Of a DNA stretch of 13,254 bases, positions 1-13,254 are shown one piece after another. Below the pieces are notes generated by a model that was not told the DNA's origin, ran no database searches, and worked only from the letters and a program-made list of their open reading frames with translations. Source of the stretch: a virus. Taxonomy: Duplodnaviria; Heunggongvirae; Uroviricota; Caudoviricetes. The number at the start of each line of letters is the position of its first letter. Positions within the stretch are counted from its first letter, which is position 1. Location of the stretch: the IMG/VR virus record IMGVR_UViG_2734482778_000014, positions 1 through 13,254 of that record; one strand, written 5' to 3'. The translations under genes and the position numbers were made by a program.

Positions 1-318
1 ATGAAAAAGATAGCTGCTATATCATTAATTAGTATTTTTATTATGTCTGGTTGTGCTGTGCATAATGATGAGACAAGTATCGGTAAATTTGGTCTTGCAT
101 ATAAAAGTAATATTCAGCGTAAACTCGATAACCAATACTACACCGAAGCCGAAGCTTCTTTAGCCAGGGGTAGAATATCTGGTGCAGAAAATATAGTAAA
201 AAATGATGCAACTCATTTCTGTGTTACTCAGGGCAAAAAAATGCAAATAGTTGAGCTGAAGACAGAAGGTGTAGGATTACATGGTGTCGCTCGTCTGACA
301 TTCAAATGTGGAGAGTGA
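1..318 (+). CDS. small predicted outer-membrane lipoprotein (105 aa), function unknown; probable prophage moron
   Basis: ATG at window position 1; N-terminus MKKIAAISLISIFIMSGC has a basic n-region, hydrophobic h-region and lipobox-like MSG|C (Cys18); residue +2 is Ala rather than Asp, so outer-membrane sorting is expected; stop TGA 316-318; visibly AT-richer than the tail genes downstream. Confidence 0.6.
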   Translation: MKKIAAISLISIFIMSGCAVHNDETSIGKFGLAYKSNIQRKLDNQYYTEAEASLARGRISGAENIVKNDATHFCVTQGKKMQIVELKTEGVGLHGVARLTFKCGE

Positions 319-380
319 GAATATTTTTTGGTAAGCGTCAAATATGCGCGTTCTGGCTGTGCGTAGCCGGAACCTGTGGG

Positions 381-413
381 AGCACGATGCCGATAAGTGA
401 AAGGCATCGTGCT
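381..413 (+). other. perfect 11-bp stem-loop (agcacgatgcc / ggcatcgtgct, 11-nt loop) immediately upstream of a strong Shine-Dalgarno AAGGAGG (417-423)
   Basis: Read directly: 381-391 is the exact reverse complement of 403-413. No T-run follows, so it is not a classical intrinsic terminator; it could be a translational or RNA-stability element or a junction remnant. Confidence 0.4.
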
Positions 414-2294
414 ATGAAGGAGGATTCTATCGATGTGGTCAATGGAAGACGGTTACCAGAGATAGGGCTTATGCATAAAAAAATAAGCCCGTGTACCCGC
501 CCTTTGAGTACGACTATAGACCTGAATACGCTTGGAGCCGCCGAACATCTTGGTTTATGGCGTAACAGTAGCTCGGCTATAGCTTCATATGAACGCAATT
601 ATCCAGAGGAAGGCGGCTTTGCTCAGGGGATGCTTGAGATCCTCGAAGGCGGGAATTATGGAAGAACGCAACGTTATACCACTCGCCGTGGAAATATGTA
701 TGTCCGCTGCCTTGCGGCAAGCTGGGATGTATCAAATCCGCAGTGGGAACCGTGGTTAAGAGTCGGTCATCAGTCAGAGAGTCGTTATTACGAAGGTGAT
801 TTAAATGTTCTAACCGACCCCGGTATTTACAGTGTTACAGGAAAGGCAACAAACGGTCCGATGCTGGACACCGTTGGCGCGACACTACTTGGGATACTGG
901 AAGTAATCAGACGTTTTGATGGTGTGTCTGTCTGGCAGCGTTACACAACCACAGGGAAATCAGAAACCACACAGGGACGCACTTTTGAGCGCGTCTACGC
1001 CGGGAGCAAATGGACCGAATGGCGAGAAGTATATAACTCCTTTTCGTTGCCTCTGAATCTGGGCATCGGTGGCGCAGTGGCAAAACTATCCAGTCTGGAC
1101 TGGCAGACCTACGATTTTGTGCCGGGCAGTCTGATAACCGTGCGGCTTGATAACATGACCAACATTCCCGACGGTATGGACTGGGGCGTCATTGATGGCA
1201 ACCTGATAAACATCGCAGTTGGTCCGAGTGATGATTCCGGTACGGGACGCTCAATGCATGTATGGCGAAGCACTGTAAGTAAAGCCAACTACCGCTTTTT
1301 TATGGTGCGCGTTTCAGGAAATCCGGGAAGCCGCACGATTACAACAAGACGAGTACCAATCATTGACGAAGCCCAGACATGGGGCGCGAAACAGACATTC
1401 AGTGCTGGCCTTTCTGGTGAACTGTTCGGCAATGCTGCGACAGCAACAAAGCTGAAAACAGCCCGTAAAATTAATAACGTTTCGTTTGATGGAACATCAG
1501 ATATTAACCTGACGCCTGAAGATATTGGTGCATTGCCAATAACGGGAGGAACTCTTACCGGCGGTTTAACTGCTGCTGGCGAGATTATTTCCAAATCGGC
1601 GAATGGTCTTCGTATTGCCTATGGCAACTATGGATTCTTTATCCGAAACGATGGTTCAAGCACATACCTCATGTTGACCAATTCGGGCGACAGCCTGGGA
1701 ACATGGAATAGTTTAAGGCCGCTTACCATTAATAACGCCAGTGGAGCTGTTTCTATCGGTAATAGTTTAACTGTTAATGGTGATATAGGAACCAATGCTT
1801 GGGTATATGCAAATCGTTTTGCAATTAATAGCAGTACCGGAATGTGGATAAATATGCGTGACCAGAATGTTATTTTTGGACGTAATGCGGTATCCACCGA
1901 TGGTGCTCAGGCATTGTTACGTCAGGACCATGCTGATCGCAAATTTATGATTGGTGGTCTGGGGAATAAGCAATTTGGCATCTACATGATTAATAATTCA
2001 AGGACAGCCAATGGCACCGATGGTCAGGCGTACATGGATAATAACGGGAATTGGCTTTGCGGTGCGCAAGTTATTCCCGGCAATTATGGTAATTTTGACT
2101 CACGCTATGTGAGAGATGTCAGACTTGGCACACGTGTTGTTCAGACCATGCAAAAAGGCGTGATGTATGAAAAATCAGGTCATGTAATCACGGGGCTTGG
2201 TATTGTCGGTGAAGTCGATGGTGATGACCCGGCAGTATTCAGACCTGTTCAAAAATACATTAACGGAACATGGTATAACGTATCGCAGGTGTAA
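414..2294 (+). CDS. H: phage tail fiber protein with P2 gpH-like C-terminus; N-terminal part divergent, start codon ambiguous
   Basis: Long ORF in frame with the track ORF 306..2294. The C-terminal ~70 aa (NYGNFDSRYVRDVRLGTRVVQTMQKGVMYEKSGHVITGLGIVGEVDGDDPAVFRPVQKYINGTWYNVSQV) matches the conserved P2 H / Mu S / P1 S-type fiber C-terminus as I recall it; the motif GNAATATKLKTARKINNVSFDGTSDINLTPEDIGAL is typical of enterobacterial prophage tail fibers; it is followed by a tail fiber assembly gene. Possible starts: ATG 306 (no SD, overlaps lipoprotein gene), ATG 387, ATG 414, or GTG 435 (11 nt after AAGGAGG). Symbol refers to the P2 homologue by C-terminal similarity only. Confidence 0.8.
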   Translation: MKEDSIDVVNGRRLPEIGLMHKKISPCTRPLSTTIDLNTLGAAEHLGLWRNSSSAIASYERNYPEEGGFAQGMLEILEGGNYGRTQRYTTRRGNMYVRCLAASWDVSNPQWEPWLRVGHQSESRYYEGDLNVLTDPGIYSVTGKATNGPMLDTVGATLLGILEVIRRFDGVSVWQRYTTTGKSETTQGRTFERVYAGSKWTEWREVYNSFSLPLNLGIGGAVAKLSSLDWQTYDFVPGSLITVRLDNMTNIPDGMDWGVIDGNLINIAVGPSDDSGTGRSMHVWRSTVSKANYRFFMVRVSGNPGSRTITTRRVPIIDEAQTWGAKQTFSAGLSGELFGNAATATKLKTARKINNVSFDGTSDINLTPEDIGALPITGGTLTGGLTAAGEIISKSANGLRIAYGNYGFFIRNDGSSTYLMLTNSGDSLGTWNSLRPLTINNASGAVSIGNSLTVNGDIGTNAWVYANRFAINSSTGMWINMRDQNVIFGRNAVSTDGAQALLRQDHADRKFMIGGLGNKQFGIYMINNSRTANGTDGQAYMDNNGNWLCGAQVIPGNYGNFDSRYVRDVRLGTRVVQTMQKGVMYEKSGHVITGLGIVGEVDGDDPAVFRPVQKYINGTWYNVSQV

Positions 2295-2297
2295 TTT

Positions 2298-2825
2298 ATG
2301 CAACACTTAAAAAACATTATTGCGGGAAATCCAAAAACGGTTGAGCAATATAAACTGACAAAGAATTTTGATGTTATCTGGTTATGGGCCGAAGACGGAA
2401 AAAACTGGTATGAGGAAGTAAGTAATTTTCAGGAAGACACGATAAAGATTGTTTACGACGAGCATAATATTATTGTCGCCATCACCAAAGATGCCTCCAC
2501 GCTTAACCCTGAAGGTTTTAGCGTTGTCGAGGTTCCTGATATTACCGCCAACCGACGTGCTGATGACTCAGGTAAATGGATGTTTAAGGGTGGTGCCGTG
2601 ATTAAGCGGATTTATACGGCAGATGAACAGCAGCAACAGGCAGAATCACAAAAGGCCGCGTTACTTTCCGAAGCGGAAAGCGTTATTCAGCCACTGGAAC
2701 GCGCTGTCAGGCTGAATATGGCGACGGATGAGGAGCGCACACGGCTGGCTGTATGGGAACGCTACAGTGTTCTGGTCAGTCGTGTGGATCTTGCAAATCC
2801 CGAATGGCCGGAAATGCCGCAATAA
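2298..2825 (+). CDS. G: tail fiber assembly protein (P2 gpG / Tfa family), 175 aa
   Basis: ATG 2298 with AGGTG SD, 3 nt after the fiber stop; 175 aa, the same length as P2 G; sits directly downstream of the fiber gene, the conserved Tfa position. Similarity is from recalled sequence, not a search. Confidence 0.88.
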
Positions 2826-2859
2826 GTTGTATGAGCTCTGGAGTGAGCTAACGTATCGA

Positions 2860-2901
2860 TAGCACAGAGTAAAGCCTAATCTGACAGTCCGCTCTGTGCT
2901 A
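2860..2901. repeat. perfect 10-bp inverted repeat (tagcacagag ... ctctgtgcta) separated by 22 bp
   Basis: Read directly: 2860-2869 is the exact reverse complement of 2892-2901. Lies in the intergenic region between gene G and the convergent ABC ATPase gene, at the left boundary of the AT-rich cassette. Confidence 0.6.
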
Positions 2902-2959
2902 GGTGCAGACATAGCTTAGAGCAGCTTGTGTAAATCTGCAGGGACGAGCTTAAAGAAGC

Positions 2960-2986
2960 GCCGCCTTCATAGAAGGCAGCATTTTA
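2960..2986. terminator. candidate bidirectional intrinsic terminator between convergent genes
   Basis: Stem gccgccttc (2960-2968) / gaaggcagc (2972-2980), 9 bp with one C-A mismatch and a 3-nt loop, followed by ATTTT on the plus strand and by CTTCTTT on the minus strand; 4 nt from the ABC ATPase stop codon (2984-2986). Confidence 0.45.
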
Positions 2987-5344
2987 CATTTGTCTACTAT
3001 CAATACCTGAACGTGCTGCTTCCATGAAGTTGATCCTTCCTGCTGGCATACCAAATTTTTTGTATTTATAACGAAAATAGGCCGACATACGGTCTTCATG
3101 CGTTGATATAATTATCTGACGATCTCGGAATTCAGTTCGTAGTAACTCGACAAAGCCAGCTACATTAATTTCGTCCAGTGTCTGAACAGGATCATCTACG
3201 AGCAATAGAGAGTGCTTGGCGTACCGCTGATTCAAGGCAAGAGTAAATGATAGTACCAATGCTGAAAGCTGGCCCGAACTCATGGAAAAGACGGCATCAT
3301 GCTCATGCCCTGGTGTTTCATTGAAGGCGATAGAATTACCATCATTTTCTATGAAGATACCCAGCCCCTGCTGATAACTTTGCATAAGGCGACCTGAATA
3401 GATATGAAATAGAATCTCAATCTCTTTAACTATAGATTCGAGATACGATCTTTTCTCACTCTCATAAATTCTTTTGATTTTCTGTAGATGACCTTTCAGT
3501 TTATCGGCCTTTCTAATTAATATTTCAGCTTTATTATACTCCAACTCACATTCCGAGATGTATTTAGATAAAGCAATGGATTGTTGCTGCCCTAAATAAG
3601 TTTTTTTCAATTCAAGTCTTGAGGGGGTGATATATTTAACCGAGAGGGGGTCGTTATTAAACACTTCACGAAAAACTCTCTCAAAATCATCATGGATACA
3701 GCTGTCGTCAACTGGTTTAAATATTTCACGAACGCGACGCTCGAGTTCATCTATCGCGAGTTGTGTTACAGGTTCAAAATTATCGCACAGTAAGTCCTGA
3801 AATATAACCCCCCCAGCTAGTAGTTGTTTATAATAATTTTCTAACCACAGGATTTGTTCTTCTGATAAACTTGTTAGTTGGCGCTTACGCTCAATACTTT
3901 CTTTCTCTTGCACCAGATATGTCTGCAGTACAATTTCAATGGGCTCCTGCCAGTTGCGTCTGAAATTGGCTAGTGCTTGTGAGAATTGATCATTCTGTTG
4001 CTCGGCTAAATTTTCTAGAATTATACGTTGGTTTTCAATTCCTCCAAGCAGAGCATCAGCCGTTGGCCAAGGATGTCCACACGTAGGGCAAATATTTGTC
4101 AAATCGCAGTGAGATTCATGCTTCCTGAAAGCACTTACCATTTGCTCGCGTGTTTGTAGCAGCGCCGCATAGCATTCCTGAACTTTATCTGAATTAGCTA
4201 ACTGCAATTTGAGCCCGGCTACCTGTTGATGAAACTCCTCCGGCGATAGGGTTTCCGGGAGGAGAGTGACCAGTGGAGCAGTGATCACCAAACGATCTTC
4301 ATTGATAGCCTTTATTGTATCTTTAAATGCGTCACTTAGTGCTAAGGCTGATTCAAAACAAGCAACGTCATCCTGCCATTTGTTCCTTTGTTCAATAGAT
4401 TGATAATACATCAAAAACCGCTGTTGTAGCTCCTGTTTAGGGAGGAGTTTCTTTATCAATTCATTATTATATAGCTGATTTTCATATTGTTCGAAATTTT
4501 CAGTAAAACGTCGGACTCGGAATAACTCTCCATCTGCAGATAACCACTGTTCGAATTGCTGTGCATCAACCTCCACAACATCACGATCCCATGGTTGATC
4601 TGTAATTGCGATAATCCTTTCATATGCAACAGAACTATCTGCTGGTAGCATCTGCTGCTTAGCTAGGTCCCATTTATCTTTAAGTTGTTTCATTTCGGCA
4701 TATTTCTGTGGATTACACAATTTACCGATTTTGGTTGATGCCAAGTTAATATTACTAATTTTGTCCTGAATGTCTCCAATATCGAACAGATGTGCAATCT
4801 GGCTCTGTCTATCTTTTTCCTTTTGTTTTAGCAACCGAGTGTTTTCTTCTTGCTCAACATAATGAAACAATTCAAAATCACGTTGATACTGATCTCCTAG
4901 TAAGGCAGAAAGGTATGATTCTTCTTGCGAAATAGCTTCACCTCGCTCCGCGTTGAAATCGGCTAATTCATAAAGAGGAAGCCTTAAATCAGCTACGCCT
5001 TTATGTTCATCTAGAACTGCTTTGCTGGCTGCTCTCTCGAGAAAACAACTACTCCCATCAACTAAGATCTCGGCACGGATTGAAAGCCAATCATCATTTC
5101 TCGCTTGTTTGAATAACCAAGGACAGCCAGTTTTCAAGCTTCGTCGATCTATTGTAAGTTTTTCGAGTTCAATATAGCGCCGGATTTTTCCTGTCAGTAG
5201 CAGTTCTAGTGCATCAAAAAAAGATGATTTACCGAAACCATTGGGACCATCAAGAACAATGAGATATTCACTTTCAAGAGTTAACTCTAGTTTCTCAAAG
5301 ACTTTAAAATTACGTACTTCTAGGCGTTTAACAATCAATTTCAT
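2984..5344 (-). CDS. SMC/Rad50-like ABC ATPase with long coiled-coil insert (LmuB / DdmC-like, ABC-three-component family)
   Basis: Preferred start ATG 5344-5342 (MKLIVKRLEVRNFKVF..., preceded by GAGG); the track ORF begins at an upstream GTG at 5368. Walker A GPNGFGKS at nt 5225-5248; about 650 residues rich in Q/E/K/L heptad-like sequence; CPTC (CxxC) at nt 4079-4090 near the protein midpoint; C-terminal signature-like SSGQ (3269-3280), Walker B LLLVDD (3191-3208) and H-loop STHED (His codon 3098-3100). Stop TAA 2984-2986. Confidence 0.85.
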   Translation of the reverse strand: MKLIVKRLEVRNFKVFEKLELTLESEYLIVLDGPNGFGKSSFFDALELLLTGKIRRYIELEKLTIDRRSLKTGCPWLFKQARNDDWLSIRAEILVDGSSCFLERAASKAVLDEHKGVADLRLPLYELADFNAERGEAISQEESYLSALLGDQYQRDFELFHYVEQEENTRLLKQKEKDRQSQIAHLFDIGDIQDKISNINLASTKIGKLCNPQKYAEMKQLKDKWDLAKQQMLPADSSVAYERIIAITDQPWDRDVVEVDAQQFEQWLSADGELFRVRRFTENFEQYENQLYNNELIKKLLPKQELQQRFLMYYQSIEQRNKWQDDVACFESALALSDAFKDTIKAINEDRLVITAPLVTLLPETLSPEEFHQQVAGLKLQLANSDKVQECYAALLQTREQMVSAFRKHESHCDLTNICPTCGHPWPTADALLGGIENQRIILENLAEQQNDQFSQALANFRRNWQEPIEIVLQTYLVQEKESIERKRQLTSLSEEQILWLENYYKQLLAGGVIFQDLLCDNFEPVTQLAIDELERRVREIFKPVDDSCIHDDFERVFREVFNNDPLSVKYITPSRLELKKTYLGQQQSIALSKYISECELEYNKAEILIRKADKLKGHLQKIKRIYESEKRSYLESIVKEIEILFHIYSGRLMQSYQQGLGIFIENDGNSIAFNETPGHEHDAVFSMSSGQLSALVLSFTLALNQRYAKHSLLLVDDPVQTLDEINVAGFVELLRTEFRDRQIIISTHEDRMSAYFRYKYKKFGMPAGRINFMEAARSGIDSRQM

Positions 5345-6032
5345 AACCTGCCTCAGATAATTTATCACCCATGGAAATTAATAGATCTTCCGGTAATACA
5401 TCCTGTGATACAATCTGAGCAGCTAAAGAATCAATAACTGAGTCGAATGTAGTTAATAGAGCAGGGTTATCCGTGCGCTGAATTTTTTCATTAATACTTC
5501 GTTCAAGGCTAGCTAAATCAGAATTACCAAAGCTATTAACTGCTATAAAAGGCAGTTTTATCACAAGTCTGTATAGTAGGCTTTGCCATCCACCTTGTAG
5601 GTAATGAGATTTATATTCGGTAAAGGTATCAGGAGAAGTAATCAATTCGCGAAAGACTGCTGCGAGTCCTTGGGTATCAACCTGCTGGTATAAAGCTTCA
5701 AGCTCTGCGGTAGTATATGGAAGTACGTGTTTCTTGAAGAAATAACTATCTTCTTCCGCATGATGAACTCTTTTACTACAAAGCACACTTGAGCTGTCAG
5801 TGTTCCATACAATCAATAAATTAATGTTTTTCTCAAGTGCGGGATCGGATGTGGCTTTTTTACATTCATTCAACCACCCAGCTTGGATTTCAGGTGTAAT
5901 TATCGGCTCACCAAAGACTACTAACCAGAAATTTTTCTTACCCAGTGTACTGTATTCGTATAACGCCAAGTCTGTGGAATGTTTACGCGTCAGTCCTTCT
6001 GATTCCAACAATTGCTCAATTAGGTTCTGCAT
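5328..6032 (-). CDS. hypothetical protein, 234 aa; candidate middle component of an ABC-three-component / Lamassu-like system (LmuC / DdmB position)
   Basis: ATG 6032-6030; stop TAA 5328-5330; no motif I can recognise. Sandwiched between the putative effector and the ABC ATPase with 17-nt overlaps on both sides, indicating a co-translated operon. Family assignment is by position only. Confidence 0.5.
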   Translation of the reverse strand: MQNLIEQLLESEGLTRKHSTDLALYEYSTLGKKNFWLVVFGEPIITPEIQAGWLNECKKATSDPALEKNINLLIVWNTDSSSVLCSKRVHHAEEDSYFFKKHVLPYTTAELEALYQQVDTQGLAAVFRELITSPDTFTEYKSHYLQGGWQSLLYRLVIKLPFIAVNSFGNSDLASLERSINEKIQRTDNPALLTTFDSVIDSLAAQIVSQDVLPEDLLISMGDKLSEAGYEIDC

Positions 6033-7332
6033 CTTTCAAACTCTCAGGTACATTGTTTAAAGAAACCATAGCCACCTTCTTATAATTCCCGATGCGGTTT
6101 TCCCTTAGTAATTCGTGTTCAATGGTATCCACTCCCTCAGTGGCGTCGATACCTACGAGTACGTCAGAGATTGAAGGTCTGTCTATGGCGCTGGTGATAA
6201 GTACACCGCCCTCAAATAAACATTCTACATCTTCGCTAATTGCCTGTTGCATGATGTCATGACAGATACTTTCCTGATGCTCTACAGCATGGTGGATACC
6301 TGTTGGATAATAGAAAAGCCCATCATTTAGCCAAGAGAATGCAACACCAGAAACTTCATTTCGTGCAGCCTGAACTAGTTTCCAGAAAATTGTAAACATC
6401 CCAAGTCGCATTGCATCACGATCAAGTGATTGTTCCTTAAATTCATCAAGAGTTCTAAAACGTCCCTTTTTATGCGGCATCGTTGCTCTCAGGAATGACT
6501 TCATTCCATCAACATCCAACGCAGTGATAGCAGCCAGATAGTCATCTAACTTTTGACATGCTGCTTGGGAGAAGCCGTCTTGGCGATCACAAAACTCTTG
6601 GTAGTATGTGCCAATATCAATCTGCAGGCGGCTAAGGAAGAACGCTTCATTCTCAAACGGAGTATAATCGTTTGCTTCGATTACACCATACAACTCAGAA
6701 AACTCGATGAATTCGCCAGCTGCGATTGCCGTCTGATGACGCACAGACTCGTGTATCCGACTATGGGTCATAATGACTTTTGAATTTACTATGGCTTCAA
6801 GCGTGTTCTGAATATTTGCAACGAGATGAATCTTCCAGGCGGGTAGTACTGCGATATTAGAAAGTAGGCTGGTAAGTTTATTCCTAATCAATCTGTCCAC
6901 CTCACTCAGTGGGCAAAAGGATTGTGTGGCATTTCCTTCTACATCAGGTGGAATAGGGTAAGCATAAAATCTCACTGGTCCATAGTCAGCCTCAAATGTT
7001 GCCGGAACGTTCATTACTTCGCGAGCCACATGGAAATAAGCGAGCTGCACACCTCGCTCCCTCGCACTATCCCGTTGGGTAGTGATGCCATCTCTGTAGG
7101 CGGAAAAGCGCGTGTCTTTGTACGCTTTGACCTGATGCATTGACAGGCATTGCTGGTGACGAAAAATTGCGAAATCATCCTGGCTTTCTAGCTGCAGTTT
7201 CAAATCTCGGTTCGCTTCATAATCTGAGGACATCATCTTCAAACAGTGGTACAGCGCCAGCTTGCCCTGATAGACAAATCCACTCCACGTAGAGATGGCT
7301 GTGTGTGGAAAAACTTGAGGAACAACTGCCAT
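6016..7332 (-). CDS. putative nuclease effector with N-terminal PD-(D/E)xK-like motifs (Cap4/DUF4297-like; LmuA / DdmA position)
   Basis: Preferred start ATG 7332-7330 (MAVVPQVF..., upstream AAGGGA); the track ORF begins at GTG 7347. N-terminal region contains GFVYQ (nt 7267-7281), then LQLESQDDFAIF and MHQVK: Asp codons at 7174-7179 and Q-x-K at 7126-7134, a spacing and context consistent with a restriction-endonuclease-like D...(E/Q)xK core. The C-terminal ~300 aa has no recognisable motif. Stop TGA 6016-6018. Confidence 0.5.
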   Translation of the reverse strand: MAVVPQVFPHTAISTWSGFVYQGKLALYHCLKMMSSDYEANRDLKLQLESQDDFAIFRHQQCLSMHQVKAYKDTRFSAYRDGITTQRDSARERGVQLAYFHVAREVMNVPATFEADYGPVRFYAYPIPPDVEGNATQSFCPLSEVDRLIRNKLTSLLSNIAVLPAWKIHLVANIQNTLEAIVNSKVIMTHSRIHESVRHQTAIAAGEFIEFSELYGVIEANDYTPFENEAFFLSRLQIDIGTYYQEFCDRQDGFSQAACQKLDDYLAAITALDVDGMKSFLRATMPHKKGRFRTLDEFKEQSLDRDAMRLGMFTIFWKLVQAARNEVSGVAFSWLNDGLFYYPTGIHHAVEHQESICHDIMQQAISEDVECLFEGGVLITSAIDRPSISDVLVGIDATEGVDTIEHELLRENRIGNYKKVAMVSLNNVPESLKDAEPN

Positions 7333-7415
7333 GAGATCCCTTATCACTTTAGATTCACATCATTGGGACATTCTCAGCACGGAGACTCTTCCCATCCTCT
7401 AACGATATATAGCCT

Positions 7416-7444
7416 ATTGACATATAAAATACTCTTAGTATTTT
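7416..7444 (+). promoter_or_regulatory. candidate sigma70 promoter: TTGACA (7416-7421), 17-bp spacer, TATTTT (7439-7444)
   Basis: Perfect -35 hexamer and acceptable -10 with correct spacing in the AT-rich region between the cassette and FI; predicted transcription start near 7451, reading toward the terminator at 7781-7809. Confidence 0.35.
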
Positions 7445-7780
7445 CGTGGATATTGTTCTATCCCCTAGATTTACATGCTTGTTGCTTATCATATCCTTAC
7501 ACTGAATCTTCGTTGGTTTGGTCAGCATCTCTAACCAGTCCCTCACGGAGAATTACTGCAACAATACAATTGTCATAAAACCTTCCGCTTAGAAGGGAAA
7601 ATGTCAACTCAACAAAGTGGTTGGCCCACTATTGATTAATAAACAATACTAGTAATGCTTCCATCGGCTGTAAGAAAAATTGAGGACTTCCGCTCCTCGC
7701 TCAAAGCAGGCTATCAGACTTGATAGCGTTTTGGCTATGTAAATTGTCAGTTGGAAAATGAGTGAGTACAAATCAGGACA

Positions 7781-7809
7781 GGCGGGCGAATTGCCCGCCT
7801 TTTCTTTAT
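7781..7809 (+). terminator. rho-independent terminator (GGCGGGC gaatt GCCCGCC then TTTTCTTTAT)
   Basis: Perfect 7-bp GC stem with 5-nt loop followed by a T-rich tract on the plus strand; no annotated plus-strand ORF of meaningful size ends upstream of it. Confidence 0.7.
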
Positions 7810-7903
7810 CTGTTGTTTCATCCACTGACCAGCCAGGTCAAATAGCGTCTCATGCACTGTCCAACAGAAAATAGTTGCACCCATTAACCACGGAGTTAAA
7901 CGG

Positions 7904-8565
7904 ATGAGTGACTATCATCATGGCGTGCAGGTGCTGGAGATTAACGACGGCACCCGCGTCATTTCCACCGTATCCACCGCCATTGTTGGCATGGTCTGCA
8001 CGGCCAGCGATGCGGATGCGGAAACCTTCCCCCTCAATAAACCGGTGCTGATTACCAATGTGCAGAGCGCAATTGCAAAGGCCGGTAAAAAAGGCACGCT
8101 GGCGGCGTCGTTGCAGGCCATCGCTGACCAGTCAAAACCAGTCACCGTTGTCGTGCGTGTTGAAGACGGCACCGGCGACGACGAGGAAACGAAACTCGCG
8201 CAGACCGTTTCCAATATCATCGGCACCACTGACGAAAACGGTCAGTACACCGGACTGAAAGCCCTGATGACACGATGGCTGAGGCGCACATGTGGGCTAT
8301 TGATAAGCCCATCACCGCAACGCTGATTCGCGACATCGTTGACGGCATCAATGCCAAATTCCGTGAACTGAAAAGCAACGGTTATATCGTGGATGGCACA
8401 TGCTGGTTCAGTGAAGAAGCCAATGATGCGGAAACCCTCAAGGCCGGAAAACTGTATATCGACTACGACTATACCCCGGTGCCTCCTCTCGAAAACCTGA
8501 CCCTGCGCCAGCGTATTACTTCAAGATACCTGGCAAGTCTGGTCACCTCGGTTAACAGCAATTAA
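7904..8565 (+). pseudogene. FI: tail sheath protein gene FI, disrupted: frame break and apparent internal deletion of about 0.5 kb
   Basis: ATG 7904 with GGAG SD. The N-terminal ~121 codons ([54 protein letters not shown]...TGLKAL) match the P2 sheath N-terminus as recalled. At about 8265-8270 the frame changes, and the sheath C-terminus ([35 protein letters not shown]...LVTSVNSN) continues in another frame to stop 8563-8565. Total coding capacity is about 220 codons, against the roughly 390-400 aa expected for a P2-type sheath. Confidence 0.8.
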
Positions 8566-8577
8566 GGAGCCTGACCG

Positions 8578-9096
8578 ATGGCAATGCCGCGCAAACTCAA
8601 GTTAATGAACGTCTTTCTGAACGGCTACAGCTATCAGGGCGTCGCGAAGTCCGTCACGCTGCCAAAACTGACCCGTAAGCTCGAAAACTATCGCGGTGCG
8701 GGGATGAACGGCAGCGCACCGGTAGACCTCGGCCTTGATGACGATGCGCTGTCAATGGAGTGGTCGCTCGGGGGCTTCCCGGATTCGGTTATCTGGGAAC
8801 TTTACGCCGCAACCGGTGTGGATGCCGTGCCGATTCGTTTTGCAGGCTCTTACCAGCGTGACGATACCGGCGAAACGGTGGCCGTCGAAGTGGTCATGCG
8901 TGGCCGTCAGAAAGAAATCGACACCGGCGAGGGTAAACAGGGAGAAGACACCGAGTCGAAAATCTCCGTGGTCTGCACCTATTTCCGGCTGACGATGGAC
9001 GGTAAGGAGCTGGTCGAAATTGACACCATCAACATGATTGAGAAGGTGAACGGCGTCGACCGGCTGGAGCAACACCGCCGCAATATCGGCCTGTGA
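8578..9096 (+). CDS. FII: tail tube protein (P2 gpFII), 172 aa
   Basis: ATG 8578 preceded by AAGGAG (8564-8569); 172 aa, the same length as P2 FII; sequence MAMPRKLKLMNVFLNGYSYQGVAKSVTLPKL... recalled as P2-type tube; conserved position after the sheath gene. Confidence 0.92.
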   Translation: MAMPRKLKLMNVFLNGYSYQGVAKSVTLPKLTRKLENYRGAGMNGSAPVDLGLDDDALSMEWSLGGFPDSVIWELYAATGVDAVPIRFAGSYQRDDTGETVAVEVVMRGRQKEIDTGEGKQGEDTESKISVVCTYFRLTMDGKELVEIDTINMIEKVNGVDRLEQHRRNIGL

Positions 9097-9103
9097 TTTT
9101 CAT

Positions 9104-9124
9104 CCGGTCAGCCTGGCTGACCGG
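9104..9124 (+). other. stem-loop between tube gene and gene E (ccggtcagc ctg gctgaccgg)
   Basis: Read directly: 9104-9112 is the reverse complement of 9116-9124 (9-bp stem, 3-nt loop), 8 nt after the FII stop. No strong T-run follows, so it is a possible attenuator, processing or stability element rather than a full terminator. Confidence 0.35.
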
Positions 9125-9152
9125 TTAACCCTGATTCAGAAGTGAGAAAACC

Positions 9153-9428
9153 ATGAACAAAGAAAATGTGATTACCCTGGACAATCCGGTCAAGCGTGGT
9201 GAGCAGGTTATCGAACAGGTCACGCTGATGAAACCCAATGCCGGGACGCTGCGCGGTGTCAGTCTGGCAGCGGTCGCGAACTCCGAAGTCGATGCACTGA
9301 TTAAGGTGCTGCCGCGCATGACGGCACCGATGCTGACCGAGCAGGAGGTCGCCGCGCTGGAACTGCCTGACCTTGTGGCGCTGGCCGGTAAGGTGGTCGG
9401 TTTTTTGTCGCCGAACTCGGTGCAGTAA
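9153..9428 (+). CDS. E: tail assembly chaperone (P2 gpE), 91 aa
   Basis: ATG 9153; 91 aa, the same length as P2 E; conserved position between tube and tape measure genes; contains the slippery heptamer near its 3' end. Confidence 0.88.
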   Translation: MNKENVITLDNPVKRGEQVIEQVTLMKPNAGTLRGVSLAAVANSEVDALIKVLPRMTAPMLTEQEVAALELPDLVALAGKVVGFLSPNSVQ

Positions 9429-9580
9429 CGTTTCCGAAAAATCTCTCGGTCGATGACCTGATGGCGGATGTGGCAGTGATATTTCACTGGCCGCCATCAG
9501 AACTGTATCCCATGAGCCTGACCGAACTCATCACATGGCGCGAAAAGGCGCTCCGGCGAAGCGGAAACACGAATGAGTAA
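9153..9580 (+). CDS. E': tail assembly chaperone E+E' fusion made by programmed -1 ribosomal frameshift
   Basis: Slippery heptamer T TTT TTG at 9401-9407 in the correct phase of the E frame (ggT TTT TTG); after a -1 shift the frame stays open to TAA 9578-9580, overlapping the T start codon at 9573. Combined product is about 142 aa. E/E' frameshifting is established for P2 and analogous to lambda G/GT. Confidence 0.75.
9401..9407 (+). promoter_or_regulatory. -1 frameshift slippery site TTTTTTG for E/E'
   Basis: Heptamer fits the X XXY YYZ pattern in the E reading frame; the -1 frame downstream is open for about 58 codons. Confidence 0.75.
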
Positions 9581-12020
9581 CAATGTAAAATTACAGGTAT
9601 TGCTCAGGGCTGTTGACCAGGCATCCCGCCCGTTTAAATCCATCCGCACAGCGAGTAAGTCGCTGTCGGGGGATATCCGGGAAACACAACAATCACTGCG
9701 CGAGCTGAACGGTCACGCATCCCGTATTGAGGGATTTCGCAAGACCAGCGCACAGCTCGCCGTGACTGGTCAGGAACTGAAAAAAGCCAGACAGGAAGCC
9801 GCAGCTCTGGCTGTCCAGTTTAAAAATACTGAACGACCGACAAATGCACAGGCAAAGGCAATGGAAGCCGCGCGTAAAAATGCGTCTGAGTTACAGGCGA
9901 AATATAACAGCCTGAGATTGTCGGTACAGCGCCAGCGTCAGGAATTGAGTCAGGCGGGTATTAATACCCGTAATCTGGCGCATGATGAACGAGGGCTGAA
10001 AAACCGTATCAGTGAAACCACCGCACAGCTTAACCGGCAGCGTGACGCGCTGGTGCGTGTCAGTGCGCAACAGGCAAAACTTAATGCAGTAAAACAGCGT
10101 TATCAGGCCGGAAAGGAACTGGCCGGAAACATGGCCTCAGTGGGCGCTGCTGGTGTGGGGATTGCGGCGGCGGGAACGATGGCCGGAGTTAAGCTGCTGA
10201 TGCCCGGCTATGAGTTTGCGCAGAAAAACTCAGAATTGCAGGCCGTGCTGGGTGTGGCAAAAGACTCCGCCGAAATGGCCGCGCTACGCAAGCAGGCGCG
10301 CCAGCTCGGCGACAATACCGCAGCCTCGGCGGATGATGCAGCCGGTGCGCAGATTATCATTGCGAAAGCCGGTGGGGATGTTGATGCCATTCAGGCGGCA
10401 ACGCCGATCACGCTGAATATGGCGCTGGCGAACCGTCGCACGATGGAAGAAAACGCCGCTCTGCTGATGGGGATGAAATCCGCCTTTCAGCTTTCAAACG
10501 ATAAGGTCGCTCATATCGGGGATGTTCTCTCCATGACGATGAACAAAACCGCCGCCGATTTTGACGGCATGAGCGATGCGCTGACCTATGCCGCACCTGT
10601 GGCAAAAAATGCCGGTGTCAGCATTGAAGAAACCGCCGCAATGGTCGGGGCACTGCATGATGCAAAAATCACAGGCTCAATGGCGGGGACGGGAAGTCGT
10701 GCCGTGTTAAGCCGCCTGCAGGCACCGACGGGAAAAGCATGGGATGCACTCAAAGAACTTGGTGTGAAAACCTCAGACAGTAAGGGAAACACCCGGCCAA
10801 TATTTACCATTCTGAAAGAAATGCAGGCCAGTTTTGAGAAAAACCGGCTCGGTACTGCCCAGCAGGCTGAATACATGAAAACCATTTTCGGGGAGGAAGC
10901 CAGCTCAGCCGCCGCCGTGCTGATGATTGCCGCCTCAACCGGAAAGCTGGACAAACTGACTGCTGCGTTTAAAGCCTCAGACGGGAAGACCGCAGAGCTG
11001 GTAAATATCATGCAGGACAATCTCGGCGGTGACTTTAAGGAGTTTCAGTCCGCTTATGAAGCGGTGGGGACAGACCTGTTTGACCAGCAGGAAGGCGCAC
11101 TGCGTAATCTCACGCAGACGGCCACAAAGTATGTGTTAAAACTAGACGGCTGGATCAAGAAAAACAAATCACTGGCGTCAACCATCGGCCTCATTGTCGG
11201 TGGCGCACTGGCGCTTATTGGCATCATCGGTGCCATTGGTCTTGTAGCCTGGCCGGTTATCACCGGCATCAATGCCATTATCGCGGCAGTGGGCGCAATA
11301 GGGGCAATCTTCACGACGGTTGGCAGTGCCGTTATGACGGCCATCGGGGCGATTAGCTGGCCGGTTGTGGCCGTGGTGGCCGCCATTGTCGCCGGGGCGT
11401 TGCTTATCCGTAAATACTGGGAGCCTGTCAGCGCATTCTTTGGCGGTGTGGTTGAAGGGCTGAAAGCAGCATTTGCGCCGGTGGGGGAACTGTTCACGCC
11501 ACTTAAGTCGCTGTTTGACTGGCTGGGCGAAAAGTTACAGGCCGCTTGGCAGTGGTTTAAAAACCTGATTGCCCCGGTTAAAGCCACCCAGGACACCCTG
11601 AACCGTTGCCGTGACACGGGCGTCATGTTCGGGCAGGCACTGGCTGACGCGTTGATGTTGCCGCTTAATGCGTTCAACAAACTGCGCAGTGGTATTGACT
11701 GGGTACTGGAAAAACTCGGTGTTATCAACAAAGAGTCAGACACACTTGACCAGACCGCCGCCAGAACTCATGCCGCCACGTATGGCACCGGTGGTTATAT
11801 TCCGGCGACCAGCTCTTATGCAGGCTATCAGGCTTATCAGCCGGTCACGGCACCGGCTGGCCGCTCTTATGTAGACCAGAGTAAAAACGAATATCACATC
11901 AGCCTGACGGGTGGTACTGCGCCGGGGACACAGCTTGACCGCCAGTTACAGGATGCGCTCGAAAAATACGAGCGGGATAAACGTGTGCGCGCCCGTGCCA
12001 GCATGATGCATGACGGTTAA
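9573..12020 (+). CDS. T: tail tape measure protein (P2 gpT), 815 aa
   Basis: ATG 9573; 815 aa, the same length as P2 T; coiled-coil-rich N-terminal half and a long Gly/Ala/Ile-rich hydrophobic segment (around nt 11150-11420) typical of tape measure proteins; conserved position after E/E'. Confidence 0.93.
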   Translation: MSNNVKLQVLLRAVDQASRPFKSIRTASKSLSGDIRETQQSLRELNGHASRIEGFRKTSAQLAVTGQELKKARQEAAALAVQFKNTERPTNAQAKAMEAARKNASELQAKYNSLRLSVQRQRQELSQAGINTRNLAHDERGLKNRISETTAQLNRQRDALVRVSAQQAKLNAVKQRYQAGKELAGNMASVGAAGVGIAAAGTMAGVKLLMPGYEFAQKNSELQAVLGVAKDSAEMAALRKQARQLGDNTAASADDAAGAQIIIAKAGGDVDAIQAATPITLNMALANRRTMEENAALLMGMKSAFQLSNDKVAHIGDVLSMTMNKTAADFDGMSDALTYAAPVAKNAGVSIEETAAMVGALHDAKITGSMAGTGSRAVLSRLQAPTGKAWDALKELGVKTSDSKGNTRPIFTILKEMQASFEKNRLGTAQQAEYMKTIFGEEASSAAAVLMIAASTGKLDKLTAAFKASDGKTAELVNIMQDNLGGDFKEFQSAYEAVGTDLFDQQEGALRNLTQTATKYVLKLDGWIKKNKSLASTIGLIVGGALALIGIIGAIGLVAWPVITGINAIIAAVGAIGAIFTTVGSAVMTAIGAISWPVVAVVAAIVAGALLIRKYWEPVSAFFGGVVEGLKAAFAPVGELFTPLKSLFDWLGEKLQAAWQWFKNLIAPVKATQDTLNRCRDTGVMFGQALADALMLPLNAFNKLRSGIDWVLEKLGVINKESDTLDQTAARTHAATYGTGGYIPATSSYAGYQAYQPVTAPAGRSYVDQSKNEYHISLTGGTAPGTQLDRQLQDALEKYERDKRVRARASMMHDG

Positions 12021-12034
12021 GGAGGTGACGAAAA

Positions 12035-12514
12035 ATGATGCTCGCGTTAGGTATGTTTGTTTTTATGCGCCAGACGCTGCCACACCAGACCATGCAGCGT
12101 GAATCTGATTATCGCTGGCCGTCAAATTCCCGTATCGGTAAACGGGATGCCTACCAGTTTCTCGGTGTTGGCGAGGAAAACATGACGCTTGCCGGTGTGC
12201 TTTATCCTGAACTGACCGGCGGAAAGCTGACGATGACCACGCTCAGGCTGATGGCAGATGAAGGCCGGGCGTGGCCGTTGCTGGATGGCACCGGCATGAT
12301 TTACGGCATGTATGTCATCAGCAAGGTGAGTGAAACAGGGAGTATTTTCTTTGCAGACGGCACACCCCGGAAAATTGATTTTACGCTGTCGCTCACCCGC
12401 GTTGATGAATCACTGGCCGCGCTTTATGGCGATATCAGTAAACAGGCGGAGTCGCTCATCGGTAAGGCCGGCAGTATGGCGACCAGATTCACAGGTATGA
12501 CGGGGGCGGGATAA
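12035..12514 (+). CDS. U: tail protein gpU, 159 aa
   Basis: ATG 12035 preceded by AAGGAGGTGA; 159 aa, the same length as P2 U; stop TAA 12512-12514 overlaps the D start by 1 nt. Confidence 0.9.
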   Translation: MMLALGMFVFMRQTLPHQTMQRESDYRWPSNSRIGKRDAYQFLGVGEENMTLAGVLYPELTGGKLTMTTLRLMADEGRAWPLLDGTGMIYGMYVISKVSETGSIFFADGTPRKIDFTLSLTRVDESLAALYGDISKQAESLIGKAGSMATRFTGMTGAG

Positions 12515-13254
12515 TGCTGGATGCGCTGACATTTGATGCAGGCAGTACGCTGACGCCGGATTATATGCTGATGCTCGACAGCAGGGATATTACCGGCAAT
12601 ATCAGCGACCGTCTGATGAGCATGACCCTGACGGATAACCGGGGCTTTGAGGCTGACCAGCTTGATATTGAACTGAACGATGCCGACGGGCAGGTCGGGC
12701 TGCCGGTTCGTGGCGCTGTCCTGACGGTGTATATCGGCTGGAAAGGTTTTGCCCTGGTATGCAAAGGAAAATTTACCGTTGATGAGGTTGAACACCGGGG
12801 CGCACCGGATGTGGTCACCATCCGCGCCCGGAGTGCAGATTTTCGCGGGACGCTCAATTCCCGCCGTGAAGGCTCCTGGCATGACACCACGCTCGGTGCG
12901 ATTGTTGAGGCGATAGCCTCCCGTAACAGGCTGGAAGCCAGTGTCGCTCCGTCACTGGCCGGAATTAAAATCCCGCACATCGACCAGTCGCAGGAGTCTG
13001 ATGCAAAATTCCTGACCCGCCTTGCTGAACGCAACGGCGGTGAGGTGTCGGTAAAAATGGGAAAACTGTTGTTTCTCAATGCGGGGCAGGGGGTGACGGC
13101 CAGCGGTAAAAAAATCCCGCAGATTACCATCACCCGCAGCGATGGCGACCGTCATCATTTTGCGATTGCTGACCGCGGAGCCTACACAGGTGTAACGGCA
13201 AAGTGGTTACACACCAAAGACCCGAAGCCGCAAAAGCTGCGTATTACCGTGAAG
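12514..13254 (+). CDS. D: tail protein gpD (late control / tail formation), 5' portion only; runs off window end
   Basis: ATG 12514 in a TAATG overlap with the U stop; frame open for 247 codons to the end of the window (MLDALTFDAGSTLTPDYMLMLDSRDITGNISDRLMSMTLTDNRGFEADQLDIELNDADGQ...). Not in the ORF track because no stop codon lies within the window. Confidence 0.88.
   Translation, partial: MLDALTFDAGSTLTPDYMLMLDSRDITGNISDRLMSMTLTDNRGFEADQLDIELNDADGQVGLPVRGAVLTVYIGWKGFALVCKGKFTVDEVEHRGAPDVVTIRARSADFRGTLNSRREGSWHDTTLGAIVEAIASRNRLEASVAPSLAGIKIPHIDQSQESDAKFLTRLAERNGGEVSVKMGKLLFLNAGQGVTASGKKIPQITITRSDGDRHHFAIADRGAYTGVTAKWLHTKDPKPQKLRITVK

Follow-up and report, generated by a model that had tools for sequence, protein, structure and literature searches.

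A 529-bp deletion in the tail sheath gene FI of a P2-like remnant carrying a Lamassu-type cassette at the yegR/ogrK-cyaR site

The DNA considered here, referred to below as the window, is a stretch of 13,254 nucleotides that makes up positions 1 to 13,254 of the IMG/VR record IMGVR_UViG_2734482778_000014; related loci with which it was compared are designated by L numbers. The left end of the window is chromosomal. Positions 1–318 (plus strand) hold yegR, a lipoprotein gene that forms the left flank of the phage-derived DNA and was identified by its 99.8–100% match to annotated yegR and by the Pfam YegR profile; 5418 of 5426 E. coli genomes have this gene. The sequence AAAAAATAAGCCCGTGTA follows at 478–495 (plus strand) and corresponds to the first 18 bases of the 27-bp sequence AAAAAATAAGCCCGTGTAAGGGAGATT, which we take to be the P2 att core. 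This left copy is cut after ...AAGCCCGTGTA, ending at GTGTA, and marks the left boundary of the remnant, while the complete 27-bp copy is found directly to the right of ogr in the full-length context provided by L006. Phage-derived sequence then begins with H′ (496–2294, plus strand), a tail-fibre gene lacking approximately its first 329 codons, as indicated by tblastn and by DNA homology to the full H gene (928 aa) that starts at position 494. Full-length H is found in the parent loci L028 and L033. The reading frame called at this position (414–2294, 626 aa) is a chimera, in which 27 codons of chromosomal and att sequence downstream of yegR are followed by H codons ~330–928. The tail-fibre assembly gene G (2298–2825, plus strand) is full length, with residues 1–176 of 176 aligned and a Pfam Caudo_TAP match.

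The accessory slot between G and FI (2984–7347, minus strand) is occupied by a Lamassu, or ABC-three-component, cassette, as assigned by PADLOC, by Pfam and by the RefSeq names given to relatives of 80% identity. The cassette contains an SMC-like ATPase, LmuB (2984–5368, minus strand, 794 aa; PADLOC LmuB 1.1e-61, Pfam SMC_N), a small middle component of the MComp1 type (5328–6032, minus strand, 234 aa; Pfam MComp1), and an LmuA-like protein of the Cap4-nuclease type (6016–7347, minus strand, 443 aa; PADLOC LmuA 8.9e-18 with a faint Pfam Cap4_nuclease match). The ATPase, the LmuA effector and the middle component thus lie in one operon, and none of the three reading frames is truncated in the window. 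This arrangement resembles that of the known Lamassu systems (LmuA-LmuC-LmuB), as the cassette likewise consists of three minus-strand genes with matches to the LmuA and LmuB profiles and to MComp1; its role in defence is predicted, and its relation to the lesion described below is that of a neighbour only.

The genes to the right of FI are all on the plus strand. The tail tube gene FII (8578–9096) is full length, with 173 of 173 positions aligned at 99.4% identity, and the tail assembly chaperone gene E (9153–9428) is aligned over all 92 positions at 100%. The E′ extension continues to 9580, so that the E/E′ pair spans 9153–9580, and a GpE call is present in L020 at the position of window 9461–9580 (E′). 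The tape measure gene T (9573–12020; 816 of 816 aligned), which is partly deleted in a sister allele, and the gene U (12035–12514; 160 of 160 aligned) are likewise full length. The preliminary description, made from the sequence of the window alone, had regarded tube, E/E′, T, U and the visible part of D as intact. This holds for FII, E/E′, T and U but not for D, of which approximately the first 241 codons are present (D′, 12514–13237) and in which homology to the uninterrupted gene of L006 and L022 stops at 13237. The last 17 bases of the window (13238–13254), where the sequence diverges from L006 and equals L007, are the terminus of ISEc12, an element of the IS21 family. The complete insertion is seen in L007, where the IS occupies 15335–17911 (2577 bp), is 100% identical to annotated ISEc12, and continues into IstA/IstB. 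The insertion point is 13237/13238, at approximately codon 241 of D, with up to 9 bp of D (CGCAAAAGC) repeated across the site. ISEc12 is absent from D in L006 and L021.

The tail sheath gene FI lies between the Lamassu cassette and FII. The open reading frame listing gives two frames at this locus, one of 140 aa (7904–8326) and one of 96 aa (8275–8565), which are in different frames. When a 1.1-kb probe around these frames was searched, matches were obtained in 113 phage records and in 1716 of 5426 complete E. coli genomes. The best of these matches were all in two pieces, in which ~1628 bp of the record corresponded to 1099 bp of the window, and the genes concerned are annotated as tail sheath FI. 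Alignment of the window with the FI genes of Yersinia phage L-413C (NP_839870, 396 aa) and E. coli SC487, each 1191 bp in length, shows a single clean gap of 529 bp, and alignment with the near-identical intact allele of L012 yields the same gap with the same endpoints. The window region 7904–8565 is consequently 662 bp long instead of 1191 bp and lacks FI nucleotides 367–895. FI nucleotides 1–366 correspond to window 7904–8269 and nucleotides 894/896–1191 to window 8268/8270–8565, because the left alignment with L012 is good through 8269 while the right alignment starts at 8268. The dinucleotide TG at the junction (8268–8269) is therefore common to both ends of the lost 529 bp, and no longer repeat is found at the deletion ends in the alignment with L012.

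At the protein level, FI residues 1–122 map to 7904–8269 in frame 2, and residues 299–396 (397 by tblastn) map to 8269–8565 in frame 1, so that 176 codons (123–298) and one base are missing. The N-terminal remnant (codons 1–122, 7904–8269, plus strand) has 98.4% amino acid identity to FI 1–122 and matches Pfam Gp18_domIII_N only. Since 529 is not divisible by 3, the N-terminal frame continues past the junction through 18 foreign codons to a TGA at 8324–8326 (8270–8326, plus strand; read from the sequence of ORF 7904–8326). The C-terminal remnant, comprising codons 299–396 and the stop (8269–8565, plus strand), is identified by tblastn in frame 1 and by Pfam Phage_sheath_1C, and its 96-aa reading frame begins at an internal ATG at 8275. 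The preliminary description had placed a frame break near 8265–8270 between ~121 and ~99 codons and had estimated that the central ~170 codons, or ~0.5 kb, were lost. These estimates are borne out closely by the measured 122 and 98 codons, the junction at 8268–8269, and the loss of 176 codons and one base in 529 bp; the alignment to FI that it had proposed for defining endpoints and microhomology gave the gap at nt 367–895 and a microhomology of 2 bp (TG).

The missing segment is central to the sheath protein. In intact FI, Pfam recognizes three domains: Gp18_domIII_N (residues 26–86), Phage_sheath_1 (113–279), and Phage_sheath_1C (280–382). The fragments in the window retain Gp18_domIII_N and profile positions 23–104 of Phage_sheath_1C, and Phage_sheath_1 is wholly gone. 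Furthermore, the R-type pyocin sheath PA0622 (PDB 3J9Q) matches intact FI over residues 4–389 (E 2e-60). As the alignment of intact FI with PA0622 runs end to end, the segment missing here belongs to the conserved fold of the sheath rather than being an insertion carried by the other FI genes, and a copy without the part that matches the middle of PA0622 would be unable to attain this fold. Compared with the P2-type gpFI of Peduovirus, such as that of L-413C, the window copy occupies the same slot in the same gene order (G – accessory slot – FI – FII – E – T – U – D) and its retained parts have ~96–97% DNA identity to P2 relatives, with 98% and 93% protein identity to FI of a complete E. coli P2-like prophage (UPEC132). 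In contrast, residues 123–298 are absent, and neither a continuous reading frame nor the Phage_sheath_1 domain remains. The orthologous position upstream of FII and the sequence are thus those of a P2-type sheath gene, while the single reading frame of ~396 codons and the set of three Pfam domains are not found. Judged from its sequence, the window FI is a pseudogene from which no sheath subunit is predicted to be made. An intron, intein or mobile element carried by other copies of FI was also considered as the origin of the 529 bp. This was rejected, since all P2 relatives and ~1500 E. coli copies contain the segment, Pfam Phage_sheath_1 covers it, and it can be aligned with the pyocin sheath. 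A programmed frameshift joining the two frames was likewise discarded; no slippery site is seen by eye at the junction, and the core domain would be missing regardless.

The identity of the element as a whole becomes clear from sequences that extend beyond the window. The full context, as read from L006, L020 and L021, has the order yegS – yegR – H′ – G – Lamassu – FI′ – FII – E – T – U – D – ogr – att – yegQ, and no phage genes are present between yegR and H′ in these three sequences. Since yegR directly precedes H′, and D is followed by ogr, a complete att core and yegQ, approximately 20 kb of a P2-like prophage is missing. The remnant is ~13.6 kb in size and has lost two thirds of the phage genome, including int, C, cox, B and A, all genes for head, lysis and baseplate, and the initial third of H. 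The integrase gene, the C/Cox switch and the replication, head, lysis and baseplate genes of a complete P2-like prophage are not found, nor is a pair of complete att cores, as the right core is complete and the left is cut after GTGTA. The features of a PR-X-type remnant are found instead: the element is situated between yegR and ogrK-cyaR-yegQ (trhP), and its left junction falls at the same nucleotide as in K-12. The yegR/cyaR site of K-12 is annotated as the cryptic prophage PR-X (yegZ, ogrK). PR-X, in which yegZ is a D fragment, shares with the present remnant the site, the left junction after GTGTA, and the right end formed by ogr and the complete core. The two differ in extent, as PR-X retains ~0.6 kb (D′ and ogr) compared with the 13.6 kb found here, which includes H′, G, the Lamassu cassette, and the FI–D tail module. 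No literature specific to the yegR/ogrK remnant, or to Lamassu in the G–FI slot, was found; the subject of Rousset 2022 is a different P2 hotspot.

Comparison with closely related loci places the FI deletion within a series of lesions. L033 is of the complete type and contains terminase, head-completion and lysis genes, R, S, V, W, J, I, H (928 aa) and G, together with the same defence genes, FI (396 aa), FII, E and T. The loci L022–L025 have full H, intact FI, T, U and D, and ogr adjoining yegQ, and differ from the window by 1–3 SNPs over 12.7 kb. The preliminary description had suggested a relatively recent lesion, and this inference is sound given complete prophages of the same type at such a small distance. 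The FI deletion occurs without ISEc12 in L006 and L021, so the ISEc12 insertion is the later event. Among the matches listed, the FI deletion is found only on H′-truncated copies, which places it after the left truncation or at least on truncated copies only in this set.

L010, L012 and L018 carry a sister allele with the H′ junction of the window and 99.9–100% identity to it, in which FI is intact and 1995 bp of T–U are deleted. This deletion corresponds to window 10401–12395 or 10399–12393, as CA is common at the junction, and is in frame, fusing T to U in a 310-aa product. The T–U deletion is carried by L010, L012, L018 and L028–L032, all of which have the SNP G>A at reference position 8941 (window 8513). 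The H′ junction (494–496) therefore occurs on two backgrounds, one with T–U intact (the window form) and one with the T–U deletion and 8941A, and a junction within gene I (I′) is also found with the T–U deletion and 8941A. Because the H′ junction is present on two backgrounds, a linear history would require recombination or a repeated identical deletion. The left-flank SNPs over 5.3 kb number 0–2 among all forms, which is too few to separate a single from a double origin of this junction. Other relatives start inside gene I, have extra deletions in H, or have a deletion of ~325 bp in the defence genes (L029, in LmuB/C). In total, at least nine structural lesions (two att-anchored truncations, FI, T–U, D::ISEc12, two H deletions, the LmuB/C deletion, and the I′–T′ joint of E. 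coli DSM 103246) are found in a set of sequences that vary at 21 sites in 14.6 kb; the lesion count is biased, as the sample was gathered by searching for variants. In DSM 103246 (L004, 14495–15329), at the same site, an I fragment is joined directly to a tape-measure fragment, followed by D and ogr; this further-reduced locus represents a more advanced step of the decay series.

Taken with these comparisons, the FI locus is very probably a pseudogene formed by a 529-bp deletion in an already truncated, Lamassu-carrying P2-like remnant at the yegR/ogrK-cyaR attachment site of E. coli. In this scheme, a first deletion would have extended from a point within the left att core to approximately codon 330 of H, with the loss of ~20 kb that held the genes from integrase to baseplate and the initial third of H. 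FI codons 123–298 and one base would then have been removed by one illegitimate deletion joining two TG dinucleotides that lay 529 bp from each other, which took the whole subtilisin-like core domain and the start of the C-terminal domain and left the last 98 codons out of frame. This FI deletion would have preceded the insertion of ISEc12 in D, and sister lineages of the same remnant would have kept FI and lost T–U. The anatomy of the locus, the endpoints of the deletion, a part of the order of events, and the independent recurrence across assemblies are direct observations. The deletion may have arisen by illegitimate recombination, replication slippage or end-joining at the 2-bp microhomology, and the loss of FI was probably neutral and followed by neutral persistence.

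Several other explanations bear on the FI gene itself. The possibility that the genome contains a full-length FI and that the gap was made by an assembler, which the preliminary description had also raised, could draw on the facts that many E. coli hold more than one P2-like element (up to four places per genome) and that some related contigs (L013, L014) break at the start of FI, at window 7907. However, the exact 140-aa frameshift product is found on nine contigs of a public assembly collection (sources Logan and ENA), and the whole window (13,254 bases) is 100% identical to six other sequences. Three of these are SRA-derived assemblies (L007, L008, L016), one is an ENA metagenome scaffold (L026), and two are NCBI isolate assemblies (L020, GCA_047580665.1, and L027, GCA_000797695.1). 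The same junction is thus present in independent isolate, SRA (Logan) and ENA metagenome assemblies, which rules out the suspected assembly error. In addition, an assembler would have had no repeat to collapse, as the deletion ends have only 2 bp in common, and the probability of an artefact is close to nil. The allele is a rare one, as the junction was found in 0 of 5426 complete E. coli genomes, in which a 161-bp junction probe gave only two-piece matches spanning 690 bp; no complete E. coli genome covers the whole window, and the best covers 56% of it. This rarity, with the allele limited to a few near-identical sequences, also argues against a function for the short FI pair, either as a split or minimal sheath or as fragments that poison the tails of superinfecting P2-like phages when the late promoter is activated by Ogr or P4 delta. 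Such a role would be compatible with both fragments being open reading frames, with the retention of ogr in the remnant, and with the location of 7700–7903 within segments ~96–97% identical to P2 relatives, so that the putative late promoter may survive. Yet the central domain is gone, the parts are in different frames, sister remnants retain full FI, and no sign of selection for the fragments is seen, making a functional pair highly improbable.

The remaining explanations concern the element and the forces acting on it. In the preliminary description the lesion in FI was read as the event that made a prophage tail-defective, and on that view a P2-like prophage, complete in other respects and recently inactivated, would have the sheath deletion as its main defect and would produce heads and DNA without working tails. 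This would agree with FII, E/E′, T and U being full length and 95–100% identical to functional phage genes, and with an element that is only 1–3 SNPs from complete prophages. It is contradicted by the left boundary, where yegR and the cut att core directly adjoin H codon ~330, by the loss of the genes from integrase to baseplate, with no phage gene separating yegR from H′ in L006, L020 and L021, and by the ISEc12 insertion in D. An intact prophage crippled by its sheath gene is accordingly an extremely improbable description of this locus. As the remnant was already unable to make particles, the FI deletion is a secondary lesion and not the inactivating event. It is also conceivable that the deletion was not neutral and that loss of late tail genes was favoured, for example if a useless tail module that is activated in trans is costly. 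Such a cost would account for independent hits on several tail genes in a very short period, and the structural lesions noted above (at least nine, with only 21 variable sites in 14.6 kb) could be taken in this sense, but the variant-directed sampling biases the lesion count, one lesion strikes the defence cassette itself (L029), and deletional bias on unselected DNA gives the same pattern; a favoured loss of FI is thus considered unlikely. The lesion pattern by itself fits deletional decay of unselected prophage DNA, and selection against a useless late-gene module could also produce it.

The left boundary is of interest in its own right. The att core breaks off at one and the same nucleotide (...AAGCCCGTGTA) in all P2-type remnants at the yegR site, as compared in the window (478–496), L004 (14482), L005 (8482), L028 (6867), and K-12 (L034, reverse strand). 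This end is joined to four internal partners, which lie within I, at approximately codon 330 of H, in the C-terminal portion of the H gene and, in K-12, within D. A constant end combined with differing partners points to deletions promoted by integrase that join att to secondary sites, and not to random deletion. A more extensive scheme, in which dismantling around Lamassu is fast and stepwise, always beginning with an integrase-type cut from the att core to a secondary site and continuing with removal of late genes by selection, is tentative and rather doubtful. If it were true, P2 prophages would as a rule be converted into fixed chromosomal defence islands through abortive Int-promoted excision. 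The pattern of att-core ends is one aspect of specialist interest that falls outside the FI finding proper.

The Lamassu cassette differs from that of the complete prophage L022 by one base (reference position 3025), a difference also present in the complete prophage L024, and its relatives in complete E. coli genomes number only three, at ~80% identity. A recent preprint (bioRxiv 10.64898/2026.02.27.708500, 2026) describes defective P2-like elements with core-gene pseudogenes beside conserved defence genes, and mentions an accessory-gene hotspot within the P2 tail genes. The elements in that work resemble the present one in that core pseudogenes lie by a defence cassette that is nearly identical to the cassette of intact elements. 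That work is a survey, whereas the present locus offers an intact parent and several decay intermediates at near-zero divergence. The remnant may have persisted because of the putative defence cassette.

These results have consequences for annotation, as FI, H and D at this locus are best treated as pseudogenes and the region as a cryptic P2 remnant with a Lamassu cassette, not as a prophage. Predictions of inducibility or of tailocins from this region would be wrong. Events of this type are familiar, as decaying prophages commonly have internal deletions in their structural genes. An intact parent with at least five decay intermediates at almost zero divergence nevertheless constitutes a natural series for prophage reduction, which could be used to measure the speed and the types of lesion with which a prophage is reduced to a defence island.

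Two minor observations concern the deposited sequences. The L013 and L014 contigs end 3–4 bases into FI (window 7907), where conserved P2 late-gene sequence starts, which suggests that a second P2-like element in those genomes disrupted the assembly. The NCBI-derived gene lists of L020 and L027 have no product at H′, FI′ and D′, consistent with pseudogene flags in the deposited annotation.
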